Positions 9,628-56,851 of a DNA stretch of 64,000 bases are shown one piece after another (position 1 is the stretch's first letter; each line of letters opens with the position of its first letter). Source of the stretch: Eledone cirrhosa (taxonomy: Eukaryota). The stretch spans positions 83,018,001 to 83,082,000 of the forward strand of contig OZ024747.1 of NCBI GenBank assembly GCA_964016885.1, read 5' to 3'. The position numbers and the translations under genes are program-made. Below the pieces are notes generated by a model that saw nothing but the letters and a program-made list of their open reading frames with translations, was not told the DNA's origin and searched no databases.

Positions 9628-12600
9628 TAAACTGGGTGACAGTTTAACACCACCCCCTAACTGGGTGAGAGTTTAACACCACCTAACTGGGTAACAGTTT
9701 AACACTACCACCTAACTGGGTAACAGTTTAACACCACGTCCTAACTAGGTGACAGTTTAACACTACCACCTAACTGGGTGACAGTTTAACACTACCACCT
9801 AACTGGGTGACAGTTTAACACTACCACCTAACTGGGTGACAGTTTAACACTACCACCTAACTAGGTGACAGTTTAACACCACCACCTAACTAGGAGACAA
9901 TTTAACACTACCGCCTAACTGGGTAACAGTTTAACACTACCACCTAACTGGGTAACAGTTTAACACTACCACCTAACTGGGTAACAGTATAACACTACCA
10001 CCTAACTGGGTGACAGTTTAACACTACCACCTAACTGGGAGACAGTTTAACACTACCACCTAACTGGGTGACAGTTTAACACTACCACCTAACTGGGTAA
10101 CAGTTTAACACTACCACCTAACTGGGTAACAGTTTAACACTACCACCTAACTGGGTAACAGTTTAACACTACCACCTAACTGGGTAACAGTTTAACACTA
10201 CCACCTAACTAGGTGACAGTTTAACACTACCACCTAACTGGGTGACAGTTTAACACTACCACCTAACTGGGTGACAGTTTAACACTACCACCTAACTGGG
10301 AGACAGTTTAACACTACCACCTAACTAGGTGACAGTTTAACACTACCACCTAACTGGGTGACAGTTTAACACTACCACCTAACTGGGTAACAGTTTAACA
10401 CTACCACCTAACTGGGTGACAGTTTAACACTACCACCTAACTGGGAGACAGTTTAACACTACCACCTAACTAGGTAACAGTTTAACACTACCACCTAACT
10501 GGGAGACAGTTTAACACTACCACCTAACTAGGTGACAGTTTAACACTACCACCTAACTGGGTGACAGTTTAACACTACCACCTAACTAGGTAACAGTTTA
10601 ACACTACCACCTAACTGGGTGACAGTTTAACACTACCACCTAACTGGGTGACAGTTTAACACTACCTAACTAGGTGACACTTTAACACTACCACCTAACT
10701 AGGTGACACTTTAACACTACCACCTAACTGGGTGACAGTTTAACACTACCACCTAACTAGGTGACAGTTTAACACTACCTAACTAGGTGACAGTTTAACA
10801 CTACCACCTAACTGGGTGACAGTTTAACACTACCACCTAACTAGGTGACAGTTTAACACCACCACCTAACTAGGTGACAGTTTAACACTACCACCTAACT
10901 AGGTGACAGTTTAACACTACCTAACTGGGTGACAGTTTAACACTACCTAACTAGGTGACAGTTTAACACTACCACCTAACTAGGTGACAGTTTAACACTA
11001 CCTAACTGGGTGACAGTTTAACACTACCTAACTAGGTGACAGTTTAACACTACCTAACTAGGTGACAGTTTAACACTACCTAACTAGGTGACAGTTTAAC
11101 ACTACCTAACTAGGTGACAGTTTAACACTACCACCTAACTAGGTGACAGTTTAACACTACCACCTAACTAGGTGACAGTTTAACACTACCACCTAACTAG
11201 GTGACAGTTTAACACTACCTAACTGGGTGACAGTTTAACACTACCACCTAACTAGGTGACAGTTTAACACTACCTAACTAGGTGACAGTTTAACACTACC
11301 TAACTAGGTGACAGTTTAACACTACCTAACTGGGTGACAGTTTAACACTACCACCTAACTGGGTGACAGTTTAACACTACCACCTAACTGGGTGACAGTT
11401 TAACACTACCTAACTAGGTGACAGTTTAACACTACCTAACTGGGTGACAGTTTAACACTACCACCTAACTGGGTGACAGTTTAACACTACCACCTAACTA
11501 GGTGACAGTTTAACACTACCACCTAACTAGGTGACAGTTTAACACTACCTAACTAGGTGACAGTTTAACACTACCTAACTGGGTGACAGTTTAACACTAC
11601 CACCTAACTGGGTGACAGTTTAACACTACCACCTAACTGGGTGACAGTTTAACACTACCACCTAACTGGGTGACAGTTTAACACTACCACCTAACTGGGT
11701 GACAGTTTAACACTACCACCTAACTAGGTGACAGTTTAACACTACCTAACTAGGTGACAGTTTAACACTACCACCTAACTAGGTGACAGTTTAACACTAC
11801 CTAACTAGGTGACAGTTTAACACTACCTAACTAGGTGACAGTTTAACACTACCTAACTGGGTGACAGTTTAACACTACCACCTAACTGGGTGACAGTTTA
11901 ACACTACCACCTAACTGGGAGACAGTTTAACACTACCACCTAACTGGGTGACAGTTTAACACTACCACCTAACTGGGTGACAGTTTAACACTACCTAACT
12001 AGGTGACAGTTTAACACTACCTAACTGGGTGACAGTTTAACACTACCACCTAACTGGGTGACAGTTTAACACTACCACCTAACTAGGTGACAGTTTAACA
12101 CTACCACCTAACTAGGTGACAGTTTAACACTACCTAACTAGGTGACAGTTTAACACTACCTAACTGGGTGACAGTTTAACACTACCACCTAACTGGGTGA
12201 CAGTTTAACACTACCACCTAACTAGGTGACAGTTTAACACTACCACCTAACTAGGTGACAGTTTAACACTACCACCTAACTGGGAGACAGTTTAACACTA
12301 CCACCTAACTGGGTGACAGTTTAACACTACCACCTAACTGGGTGACAGTTTAACACTACCACCTAACTAGGTGACAGTTTAACACTACCTAACTAGGTGA
12401 CAGTTTAACACTACCACCTAACTAGGTGACAGTTTAACACTACCTAACTAGGTGACAGTTTAACACTACCTAACTGGGTGACAGTTTAACACTACCTAAC
12501 TGGGTGACAGTTTAACACTACCACCTAACTAGGTGACAGTTTAACACTACCACCTAACTAGGTGACAGTTTAACACTACCACCTAACTAGGTGACAGTTT

Positions 12601-12803
12601 AACACTACCACTTAACTAGGTGACAGTTTAACACTACCACCTAACTAGGTGACAGTTTAACACTACCTAACTGGGTGACAGTTTAACACTACCTAACTGG
12701 GTGACAGTTTAACACTACCTAACTGGGTGACAGTTTAACACTACCACCTAACTAGGTGACAGTTTAACACTACCACCTAACTAGGTGACAGTTTAACACT
12801 ACT
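9628..12803. repeat. Minisatellite of 29-bp and 26-bp units (~110 copies)
   Basis: Unit cctaactrggtgacagtttaacactac(ca). Variants are ggg/agg, gtg/gta/gag and presence or absence of a 3-bp cac. Confidence 0.98.
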
Positions 12804-13484: not shown

Positions 13485-13760
13485 AATATTAAATAAATGG
13501 AAAACTATATTTATAAAACCATATTTATTTCATTATATATATTTCGGGGATATCATATTAACAATATGCTATGCCTTCATCAGACAAAATACAATATAAA
13601 CAGTTTTATAGATAAATATATTCGACATACCGTAATGAACATCAACTTCATTTGAAGAGGTTCACTCTATATTGTAAATATACTCCAAGTATTTGTCGAG
13701 TGCTTTTATATCAGTTATAAATATTTACTAGTTGTAACCCAACAATTTTAAATATAACTT

Positions 13761-47914: not shown

Positions 47915-48470
47915 GCAAAAGGAAACATACCTCATCAGTTGAATTTTCCTTGGATAATTCACCTGATAAGGTATGTTTCTTGGCTATGTCAAAATTTATA
48001 AAACCCACTTTGTATTTTATCTGATGAAAGCGTATCAAAGTTTTTGGTACCCTTGAAATATATATAATAGAATAAATATGGTTTTATAAATATAGTTTCA
48101 ATTTATTTAATATCATTGAATAGTTACTCCAGAAAACTGTCGAGTGCTCTGAATCAGTTATAAACATTTATATTTGTTGAATTTCCAACAAATTAAATAT
48201 CCCTTCTACTTATAAGCAAAAGGGATATTTAATTCATATTCATCTTAATAATTTGAAATATTTGACTTTTCTTCTCTTTCCCTTCTTTCCTTTTACTATC
48301 CAGGAAAAAGTTGAACCGTTAAAATCTTCTTCCTGGATATGTCAATATTTATAAAACAAACTTTGTATTTTATCTGATGAGAGCGTACTAAAGTTTTGGT
48401 ACCCTTGAAATATATATAATAGAATAAATATGATTTTATAAAGATAGTTTCAATTTATTTAATATCATTT
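47913..48470 (+). mobile_element. Two tandem pLTR copies with HHRs (48014-48073, 48367-48425)
   Basis: attttat CTGATGA (a/g)ag..ctt GAAA tatata TA atagaat occurs twice. The first copy has the 3' tail and the second lacks it. Confidence 0.75.
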
Positions 48471-48703: not shown

Positions 48704-49363
48704 ATAATGATACATGACATACCCTGAGATGTTAAATGGTTAAGATTTAATCAAGGTAGTGATTAACCCAAGAAAAATTTAACATTTATACCCTAATAAT
48801 GAGAAAATGCGAAAACGTAATAAATTCAATAGAGAAAGTGCGAGTAAGAAAAACGTTGCTTAATGTAACAGTTATATAGATATTAAGGTGTATGATACTA
48901 CAATTTATGAATAAAGGGGGGTAATATGCTGAAGGAGATTTATTTTTGCCGAAAGTTAAATGGTTAATTTTGAAAATATTTAATTTATGTATTATAGGAT
49001 GAAGATTCAAGATTTTGGTGTGTTTTTTTTATTTAAAAAAAAAAAAAAAATATTGCTGGTTATTTATGTATTAATTTTATAAATTCTCTCTCTATATATA
49101 TACGCACACATACGGGGGGGGGTTTAGAAAATAGATTATATCAAAATAATGTTGCAAATGTCCATTTGTAATAAAGCACGTTTATTATAACGTAATACAT
49201 AATATTCTTCACGTCTAACCCTTCTGGAGACGTTTAATTGAATGCAGCTTCTATCCTTTCAAATGTGTATTGTGTGTGTCCACAGACACACACACACACA
49301 CACTACCGATTATGTTTTTATTTCTGTTTACCTTTTACACACACACACATATATATATATATG

Positions 49364-50042
49364 TGTAACCCATTTGCAACTCCGCAGCACGTTTATTCTC
49401 ATATTTACACATATTTTTTCCCCGGCTATGACCCGCCTATTTCGTTCTTACTGCTTCCTCTTTCTCTGTATCTTTACCCTCTCTAACAGTCACTCTCTCT
49501 GTTAGCCTCTTCCTCACCCTTCACTCACTCACTCTCTGTTACTACCTCTCCTCTTCCTCCTTCTTCCCGTTTGACCTGTGCGTAATTCTTTTCTTTCGCA
49601 CGCTTGGCCAGGCCGGTTCGCCTTTTTTCTCTCTCTCGTCTCCGATTTCACAGAACTTATGTTCACCGAATTCACGGACTAGACCCCTTCTTCCTCCCGT
49701 TAGACCTGTGCAAAATTCCTTCCTTGCTCATATTTCAACCAGGTTTAATGGTCTTTATTCTCTCTCGTTCACGATTTCACCGAACTTATATTCATGGAAA
49801 TTTGGGACTTGACTCGTTCTTCCTCACTTTCGTTGCTTCACCATTTTTGTTTGTTTACACTCTCGCTATTCCCTTTATTTACGTGTCCCAATGACTTTCT
49901 TCAGCCGTTGCTCGCACCAACCGGAGGTATATCGTCTTTAAAGCGAAGAAATACCGATGATGGTTGGAAGATCACTGATGAAAGACCACTTTATTCATAT
50001 GTAACCCATTTGCACCTCCGCAGCACGTTTATTCTCATATTT

Positions 50043-50047
<5 letters not shown>
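49364..50047 (+). mobile_element. Non-coding element with 48-bp direct terminal repeats and an HHR-like motif (retrozyme-like)
   Basis: Direct repeats at 49364-49411 and 50000-50047. aata CCGATGA tggt-tggaag-atca ctgat GAAAG acca CTT tatt at 49950-49995. Internal ~135-bp duplication; (TA)n on both sides. Confidence 0.65.
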
Positions 50048-50118
<71 letters not shown>

Positions 50119-50119
50119 T

Positions 50120-50683
50120 TATTTATTAAAATAACAGATTAAAGTTTAAGCAAAGAATCGCTGCTTTCACCCTTAACGGGATCTTCTGAAACTAACAAAG
50201 TCAATCTGTAAACGCAGAACTGGATATTTCAAAAAACGTTGCAACCGGAGGAAGACAGGAAGACGATACTTTGGTTCGTGGAAACGTTCGCTGGCAAAGA
50301 ACGGGAAAAAACGAATAATACGTCATTAATAGGAGCGGTGAAAAACAATTACGCGCAAAGACAGAACCACGTTTATGGTATAAAAGAGGTCGTGGACTAA
50401 TGTTCTCTTAGGTGGTACATAGAGACGTTCTCTGGCAATGAACGAAAAAACGAAGATAATAAGTCATATGTGGAGCGTGGAGAACAATAGCACGCAAAGA
50501 CAAAACCACGTAAATGGTATAGCAGAAGTCGTAGACTAAAATTCTAACTAGGAGACCAAATGAATCTCACAGAAGTAATAGAAATAAATAAATACATACC
50601 CGCAAACAAATACGTACATACACAAGCTTACGCAAAACCTTATCGAGCCCTCTTTGGATTTTAGTCTTCAATTTTATTATTAT

Positions 50684-50688
<5 letters not shown>
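50120..50688. mobile_element. PLE pLTR (family of 335-452): minus-strand body with degenerate HHR plus plus-strand tail
   Basis: atttattaaaataacaga is the reverse complement of 335-352. Minus strand reads CAGAAGA t-ccc-gttaa-ggg-t GAAAGC at ~50163-50189. Tail at 50638-50688. Confidence 0.6.
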
Positions 50689-50736
<48 letters not shown>

Positions 50737-51112: not shown

Positions 51113-52320
<1,208 letters not shown>

Positions 52321-55280: not shown

Positions 55281-55344
55281 AAAAGTAGTTTTAGATTGAT
55301 AATTGATATTGGGGAAAAAAACTTTTAGAGGGGGGGGGGGGGGA

Positions 55345-55776
55345 TAACACCAACTTTTACGCTAAACTCTTCACTATATTCGTTGTTAATTCTAACCTTG
55401 CTGACTGTTTCTTTATACATGGCTTGTATAGCTCTCACAAGCCATTCATCAATACCTAGTTTTCTAAGGGCCCACCAGATAATCGAGCGGGGTACTCTGT
55501 CAAAGGCTTTCTCCAAGTCAACAAAAGCTAAGTATAGGGGTTTACTTTTAGCTAGGTACTTCTCCTGTAGTTGTCGTACAATGAAAAGAGCATCTGTTGT
55601 ACTTTTACCTGAGACAAACCCGAACTGCATTTCATCTAGATCAATTCTCTCTCTGATTAGTTGCGCTACTACTTTTTCTGTGACCTTCATGACCTGGTCA
55701 ATTAATTTAATGCCTCTATAGTTACCCCTATTGTAGCAGTTAATGATGATTCTGCTGCGCCAGTCCTTCGGAACGA
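55345..55776 (-). mobile_element. RTE-clade reverse transcriptase fragment (domains 0-3)
   Basis: NYRGIKL..MQFGFVSGKSTTDALFIVRQLQEKY..LAFVDLEKAFDRVPR..MYK..VKVGV. Confidence 0.92.
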
Positions 55777-55797
55777 TATATATATATATATATATAT

Positions 55798-56851
55798 AAC
55801 GGCGATGAATTAGTTTTGCGAGGTTTTTTATATGAAATCGTGTGTCGAAACAAATATTGTTATACTTGGGGAGGGTCATATTTGTGTAATATTGCCAGAA
55901 TTAATAACAGAACACACTCACTGTTTGGTTGGTTTTCGCTTCTGTGTCTTTTATATCGGTAATCTAATTTATTCGGTCCTCAATGTTGCCATTGACTGAC
56001 CGACGGTCAAAAATAATACAGATACAATATAGACACAAACACATATATATAGTTTATCAAAGTTCTTTCGTTGCACATCTGCAACATCGTCAGTGGTGCT
56101 ATTGTTTCCTCCCGTTACATTGTATGTCTACGCCATTTTTATTTAGTCTGTCTATATATTTATTTATTTATTTGTTTGTTTGTTTATTTTATTTTGTCTT
56201 CTTTGCGCATGCGTTTGCGTGTGTGTATAGTGTTTTGTTTGATGTGTGTTCGTGATTGGGTGACTGTGTATCGGTTAATGTATTCTATCTTTACTAGTGT
56301 GTGTTTATATGTGTTTGTTGTTATTGTGCTTGTGTATGTATTTATTTATTTATTTATCTATCTATTTATTTATTTATTTATACTTCTCTTAGGTCAGTGT
56401 TGTTTGTTTGGGTGTTGTTGTTATTCCTTTCATTCTTTCTGTTTAGTCTTGGCCTTCTAAGTTCTATTTCCCTGACCTTTCTGATTTGCCTATCTGCTGG
56501 GTCATTTCTATGTTTAGATATTATTCTAATTTCTATGTTGTCTATGTTACCGTCGTGTTGTTGTCTGGCATGTTCGTATAGTACTGACCCGTTTTTTCGT
56601 CCTTTTAGTGCCCCCCAGTGTTGGTCTATCCTTTCACCTATGCTACGAGCTGTCTCGCCTATGTATGTTGTTGTCATGTTTCTGCAAGTACCCTCTGTAC
56701 ATCTTATGCTATAGACTACGTTTCGAGTTTTACAGTTTATCCGGGGGTTTACCTTACATATGATACATTTCCTATTAGTACAGTGAGTGTGTTCTGTTAT
56801 TAATTCTGGCAATATTACACAAATATGACCCTCCCCAAGTATAACAATATA
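55798..56851 (-). mobile_element. 5'-truncated Penelope-like element: GIY-YIG ORF end, pLTR with HHR, tail, and inverted pLTR end
   Basis: HHR at 56056-56097 (-). Segment 55854-55924 is repeated in inverted form at 56780-56850. Tail 55798-55853 is related to 62341-62397. Confidence 0.9.
56378..56783 (-). CDS. PLE GIY-YIG endonuclease domain (partial, open frame)
   Basis: CTNRKCIICK..NCKTRNVVYSIRC..C..TYIGETARSIGERIDQH..LYEH..H..DRQI..I..RPRLNRK: VVY/YIG motifs, conserved R and H, Cys-rich linker. Confidence 0.9.

Follow-up and report, generated by a model that had tools for sequence, protein, structure and literature searches.

A young non-coding tandem repeat of Eledone cirrhosa with Penelope-like insertion retains a putative self-cleaving fold of the SGC hammerhead order

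The window analyzed here, 64,000 nucleotides (64 kb) of contig OZ024747.1 of the Eledone cirrhosa genome, contains at positions 49364..50047 of its forward strand a copy of a young, multi-copy, non-coding repeat built of tandem units. On comparative sequence grounds it is likely that this repeat inserts in a PLE-like manner and conserves an SGC fold that would be self-cleaving and would have been inherited from Naiad elements.

The whole insertion (49364..50047, forward strand) spans 684 bp and comprises one unit plus 48 nt of the following unit. The repeat unit (49364..49999) is pyrimidine-rich and non-coding, with a length of 636 nt in the window copy and 638 nt in the majority of its family (family A). 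The 'tail' (50000..50047) has the same letters as 49364-49411, recurring with one mismatch at a spacing of 636, and spans two preferred 3' ends, at 49999 and at about 50039-50047. Target sequences read from the DNA flank the insertion on the left, (CA)n(TA)n at 49338..49363, and on the right, (TA)n at 50048..50116. The original prediction, of an element of ~685 bp lying between (TA)n tracts, without coding capacity and derived from a ~636-nt unit copied slightly more than once, is confirmed in its extent, its flanks and its tandem nature, and none of the three open frames of the element (102-126 aa) lies above the Pfam cut-off. The 48-bp direct repeats that it took to be terminal are present with their one mismatch, but the right-hand copy is the start of the next tandem unit. 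An LTR-like terminal repeat was thereby ruled out in favor of a partial tandem of variable length, and a plant LTR retrozyme was also rejected, as neither long terminal repeats nor a type III fold were found. Self-comparison reveals that about 130 nt were duplicated internally long ago, at 49556..49825 (forward strand), the two copies being 72.5% alike. The neighboring element at 50116-50690 (reverse strand), which has an internal repeat of 139 bp and, at its end, a degenerate hammerhead-like sequence, shares the right (TA)n tract and turns its 3' end toward the insertion; no significant sequence was found to be shared between it and the repeat unit.

Within the 3.0-Gb genome of Eledone cirrhosa a 32-nt core pattern yields 1,830 exact matches (control 0), and the element is therefore not single-copy. 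A genome search with the unit gave 3,852 first-look candidates, of which 40 were scored, these copies being 93-96% alike. The 30 best copies differ by 0.4-3.8% from their own majority and the window copy by 2.9%. Insertion ends were surveyed in the first 100 pattern matches in genome order, which represent 79 non-overlapping loci with five overlapping duplicates dropped. Among 100 scored 3' ends, 67 fall at the site matching 49999, 28 about 40 nt further and 5 elsewhere, and (TA)n follows nearly all of them. The 104 5' ends at these 79 loci are spread over the unit, and both orientations are present at 20 of the loci. A six-unit array of the family, 3,850 nt long, was found at locus L285. The tails of families A, B and D and of L211 and L217 share a recurrent GTAACC motif, located between or near the 3' ends, which is possibly a protein-binding or start signal. 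A Poseidon element with a two-start optional tail and priming on both target strands is described in the available portions of PMC11167929, and the 95 of 100 3' ends located at two sites ~40 nt apart match that two-start 'tail'. The two-end 3' pattern recurs in Neptune families of the E. cirrhosa genome. The family thus combines a pair of fixed 3' ends in (TA)n with 5' ends that vary, with partial tandems and with inverted copies, and the element is almost certainly a non-autonomous repeat of PLE type, which upholds the earlier description of a retrozyme-like, non-coding element of this kind. The family also has the dispersed, non-coding tandem unit with one ribozyme motif each that characterizes non-LTR retrozymes; the type I hammerhead expected per unit was absent from the family in a motif scan.

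A type I hammerhead had been proposed at 49950..49995 (forward strand), with cleavage after 49991 fixing the 5' end of the insertion. The letters of this fold fit loosely in the window copy, and 3 of 91 segments begin at the same unit junction versus 0.4 expected, a weak recurrence at a place that coincides with an ATAT stretch able to anneal to the (TA)n target. Against this, the hammerhead scanner finds stem I with 4 bp and stems II and III with 1 bp each in the window copy, folding prediction does not return the fold as that of minimum energy, and Rfam gives no hammerhead or other ribozyme match either in this region of the window or in five family loci. A scan of the family majority for types I, II and III, with one core mismatch allowed, was empty on the sense strand. 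Of the 30 best copies, 29 have G at position 49983, as do 101,904 of 101,981 depth units of sequencing run X1. The GAAA at 49980-49983 is present because of the A that is private to the window copy, and the type I fold is therefore an accident of this copy, its core lacking from the family majority. Sister families vary the CCGAUGA freely yet keep the SGC core. The 5' ends of other copies are scattered over the unit rather than piled at the cut after 49991, against the argument drawn from the 5' end; the type I fold is not conserved and was rejected, with a probability that we put close to nil.

The conserved fold, a predicted type-SGC hammerhead with a split stem II and a kink-turn-like motif, occupies 49884..49987 on the forward strand by comparative reading, and this stretch holds every hammerhead core motif in non-circular order: cleavage site, GAAA and CUGANGA. 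The first element is an upstream strand (49885..49915) that holds the 5' side of helix H1 (49885-49888, pairing with 49983-49986), hairpin H2 (49890-49909) and the 5' side of helix H3 (49912-49915), which by the pair count pairs with 49943-49946 and stands in for stem II. H1 and H2 were read by eye, and the alignment used mis-registers family D over H1/H2 and has four truncated rows. The 5' side of P1 (49917-49922) pairs with 49962-49967, also by the pair count, and is followed by a kink-turn-like GA (49924-49925) whose partner is a bulge plus GA at 49956-49960. Block S (49926..49939) comprises the 5' side of stem III (49926-49929), U16.1 (49930), A17 (49931), the comparatively predicted cut between 49931 and 49932, and the 5' side of stem I (49932-49939). 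Block G (49947..49955) consists of position 11.1 (49947), GAAA (49948-49951) and the 3' side of stem III (49952-49955), and block C (49968..49986) of the 3' side of stem I (49968-49974), CUGAUGA (49975-49981), position 10.1 (49982) and the 3' side of H1 (49983-49986). The cut predicted from this arrangement sits 60 nt upstream of the one proposed originally and uses other strands. All families have the sequence pattern of a 3-nt bulge and then tandem G-A and A-G pairs between two helices. This extension of stem III into P1 is what we take to be a putative kink-turn, and it could bring H3 within reach.

Support for the fold comes from diverged relatives obtained by a profile search with family A, which led to families B (unit 519 nt) and C (unit 534 nt). 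Family A is 76-83% alike to B and C over the last 125 nt, which contain the fold, versus 53-55% in the body. A pattern of core and kink-turn letters, written so as to exclude the stem III of A, B and C, had 14 matches (control 0), most of which constitute a new family D with different but complementary stems, and a second pattern had 76 matches (control 0) and gave family E. Pairing was counted in 30 sequences picked by hand from A, A2, B, C, D, D2 and E out of 202 cores. In the 24-pair structure 88.6% of 720 cells are paired, compared with 33-46% in slid controls, and 20 of the 24 pairs show two-sided change; these covariation counts represent 5-6 lineages and not 30 independent events, with the D and E rows having been picked through core patterns. 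Two-sided change is found in 7 of 7 pairs of stem I, 4 of 5 of stem III, 3 of 5 of H3 (77% paired) and 5 of 6 of P1 (89% paired). All four nucleotides, U, C, A and G, occur at position 7 of CUGANGA, as in hammerheads. The unselected majorities of A, A2, B and C retain CUGANGA, GAAA (in A2 part of the selection itself) and UA, and the S-G-C block order was found with an intact core, the exception being the family D majority, which has U4C. We hold with high confidence that the SGC fold is conserved in the family.

The fold departs from the published SGC form chiefly at stem II. A continuous stem II, joining the sequence after CUGANGA to that before GAAA, was sought, and only 0-1 bp were found. 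Its place is taken by one pair, 10.1-11.1, and by helix H3 with the upstream strand. The pair, formed between the base after CUGANGA and the base before GAAA, is A-U, G-U or G-C according to family. The strand that follows the core finds its partner still further upstream, forming H1, and a hairpin intervenes in A-D but not in E, as read by eye. The subfamily of the window copy has A-A at 10.1-11.1, as do 49 of 127 A/A2 cores; among the first 100 listed copies position 11.1 is U in 87 and A in 13. In family D (L359-L388, sampled by DNA similarity with no core selection) 22 of 32 cores have CCGANGA, which may represent either a natural U4C variant or a family whose CTGA copies arise through CpG decay. 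The window copy itself carries two private changes, a G>C at 49933 that breaks pair 2 of stem I and a G>A at 49983 in H1, and is probably impaired by them.

Members of the family probably self-cleave at the bond matching 49931/49932, judging by the retained core. An alternative view, which we consider improbable, is that the fold exists but has lost catalytic activity or never had it, being a hammerhead-derived structure to which the PLE protein is recruited and which sets the start of reverse transcription on uncut multimeric templates. Such a view is in keeping with the 5' ends, which are not piled at the predicted cut (1 at 49931/49932 versus 2.3 expected), with core variants in successful families (A-A at 10.1-11.1 and CCGANGA in D), with the 12 of 91 core-holding segments that span two or more cores, and with the hammerhead mutants that left in vitro insertion unaffected in the experiments available from PMC11167929. 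It does not sit well with the retention of the core letters and of a variable position 7 across families whose stems are wholly different, nor with the distribution of copy lengths, in which the excess moves with the start site and is not tied to one position.

Copies with a length of one unit plus 0-59 nt, the enriched class into which the window copy (unit + 48) falls, number 14 in A/A2 versus 2.9 expected (about five-fold), 20 versus 5.6 in A/A2, B and C together and 6 versus 3.0 (P 0.09) in B and C alone, in bins that were set after a first look, with later bins raised as well and with small numbers throughout. The observed excess fits the prediction made by a circle that is read once before the enzyme stalls on its own product. 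None of the 91 core-holding segments matches the ~68-nt product expected from a cut linear monomer. A circular template, which had been raised as a possibility in the original prediction, is favored by the excess, and we give it somewhat better than an even chance. Another reading, which seems doubtful though it carries more weight than the non-catalytic one, is that the ribozyme cleaves but insertions derive from linear multimers, the excess reflecting stalling in the knotted fold or at the cut end of the upstream unit. For copies that start at the first site the excess (unit 576-638) indeed lies directly below the upstream cut (16 versus 3.5 expected), and an array of six units is present in the genome. 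For copies that start at the second site, however, the excess appears before the fold, with 9 versus 3.6 in the unit + 0-59 bin, and little of it lies inside, the next bin, where the upstream cut falls, having 4 versus 2.7; these numbers too are small. In the favored scheme of cleavage and circles, each unit of a multimeric transcript would be cleaved once and a fraction of the product closed into circles of ~638 nt. A trans-acting PLE enzyme would nick (TA)n, and reverse transcription would begin at either of two internal positions, 68 and ~110 nt below the cut, in keeping with the two observed ends. It would then continue across the junction and in many cases end shortly after a single round, which would produce the length excess, and head-to-head pairs would arise from priming on both target strands.

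Candidates for the mobilizing enzyme were sought through the GIY-YIG domain, with 10,596 candidates found, 150 scored and 70 loci examined. These 70 loci are of Neptune or Penelope/Poseidon type or unclear, and none has the SGC fold as its own end. The exact Naiad RT motif has no match in the Eledone cirrhosa genome, and the motif with two mismatches has 11 (control 1), which correspond to eleven decayed Naiad-type RT remnants (L400-L410), 65-85% alike and all with stops. No SGC fold was found behind these 11 remnants, nor was an intact Naiad found in the genome. Given decayed Naiad remnants and no fold-ended locus among the 70, the young insertions would need either cross-mobilization by Neptune or a Naiad that was not sampled. 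The remnants are far older than the repeat families in which the Naiad-type fold occurs. A young Neptune-type PLE (L091:1380-4193, reverse strand, and L342) has an open frame of 938 aa, another copy at 96.8% identity and ends in (TA)n at two sites; it is a candidate for the trans-acting enzyme. A Neptune open frame beside a copy in L097 was rejected as a partner, its element ending in (TA)n before the repeat, which makes this a nested insertion. In the Neptune loci sampled (L091, L097 and their relatives), CUGANGA is absent from the shared 3' region of three out of four families. Outside Naiad and Chlamys, the canonical hammerhead is said to be a general feature.

According to the available sections of Craig et al. 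(2021; PMC8557442), no canonical hammerhead was found in Naiads, some of which were marked HHR_core or HHR_half_core. In the Naiad consensus sequences of its supplement, read by eye, the S-G-C order with paired stems I and III and H3 is present at the 3' end of 10 of 54, with the reading covering a subset of search hits and line breaks able to hide motifs. The ten are one Clytia sequence, three near-identical Acropora sequences, Naiad-2_Movir, Naiad_Plae and Naiad_EuTe (these two assigned by file order), Naiad_Obim, Naiad_Ovul and Naiad_Esco, and Naiad_Bfor probably carries the fold as well. Two octopus Naiad ends additionally show H2, P1 and the kink-turn-like motif, again by eye, and in the nematode Naiad hits the C block precedes the G block. 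It is probable, as far as this reading by eye can tell, that the fold was inherited from the 3' end of a Naiad. A broader proposal, which we favor with caution, is that Naiads and their non-coding derivatives use an undescribed S-G-C wiring, with stem II rebuilt from the upstream strand and braced by a kink turn in the E. cirrhosa lineage, that this structure would be self-cleaving, and that circles would be the templates for reverse transcription; such a wiring would explain the apparent lack of hammerheads in Naiads.

Several other features were observed in the window. It contains six minimal type I hammerheads, at 13583(-), 41299(+), 48021(+), 48374(+), 48696(-) and 55211(-), with a stem I of 8-12 bp and a palindromic stem III, belonging to at least 3 short repeat families. 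Most closely precede (TA)n, and those at 48021 and 48374 are in tandem, 353 bp apart. Inverted pairs of hammerhead-bearing repeats, an arrangement of PLE type, are found at 51505(-)/51998(+) and 62592(-)/62918(+). An RT fragment at 55325-55900 (reverse strand; Pfam RVT_1, E 1e-13) is presumably of the ordinary LINE type, and a 29-bp satellite occupies 9630-12802 with 113 copies at 94% matches.

Should these readings be correct, hammerheads that are not circularly permuted would extend from environmental RNA to animal genomes, in thousands of copies, and the strands adjoining the hammerhead core could be interrupted, contrary to assumption. The view that Naiads lack hammerheads would be overturned, together with the argument that the ribozyme is dispensable for the success of PLEs. 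Standard descriptors and Rfam miss the fold, and therefore counts of retrozymes would be too low. The excess in insertion length also offers a genome-only test of circles as the template for transposition. In a search of the openly accessible literature, no description of this fold in Naiads, PLEs or animals was found.

Among known systems, the SGC order was named with the type-SGC hammerheads HRIMA-1 and variants (Eckert et al., 2023; PMC10085705), where, in the sections available, none of the RNAs comes from the genome of a known organism, save one GCS candidate. The E. cirrhosa fold resembles these in its S-G-C order, pseudoknotted stems I and III, full core and the 3 nt that link stem I to the strand preceding GAAA; it differs in its stem II, made of one pair plus a helix with the upstream strand within a 3- or 4-way junction, in the kink-turn-like extension of stem III and in its presence in an animal genome. 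Naiad PLEs (PMC8557442, as far as its accessible text and supplement describe them) share the preference for (TA)n, tandem and inverted copies and, in octopus Naiads read by eye, helices H2, H3 and P1 and stems I and III, whereas the E. cirrhosa repeat is without an ORF. PAc Poseidon (Frangieh et al., 2024; PMC11167929, same portions) likewise has two internal starts below a hammerhead, an optional tail of 30-40 nt and priming on both target strands, but is autonomous, has a type I hammerhead and is without a strict (TA)n target. Animal non-LTR retrozymes, which the parts consulted of PMC7229834 and bioRxiv 10.64898/2026.07.22.740005 define by type I hammerheads, are similar in their non-coding tandem unit with one hammerhead-like motif each, in their dispersed monomers and short multimers and in their link to PLEs. 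In those elements the motif is of type I and circles have been shown, whereas the order in E. cirrhosa is SGC and circles are suggested by insertion lengths. By its predicted workings, the E. cirrhosa repeat is like both a non-LTR retrozyme and an SGC hammerhead, yet misses one defining feature of each.
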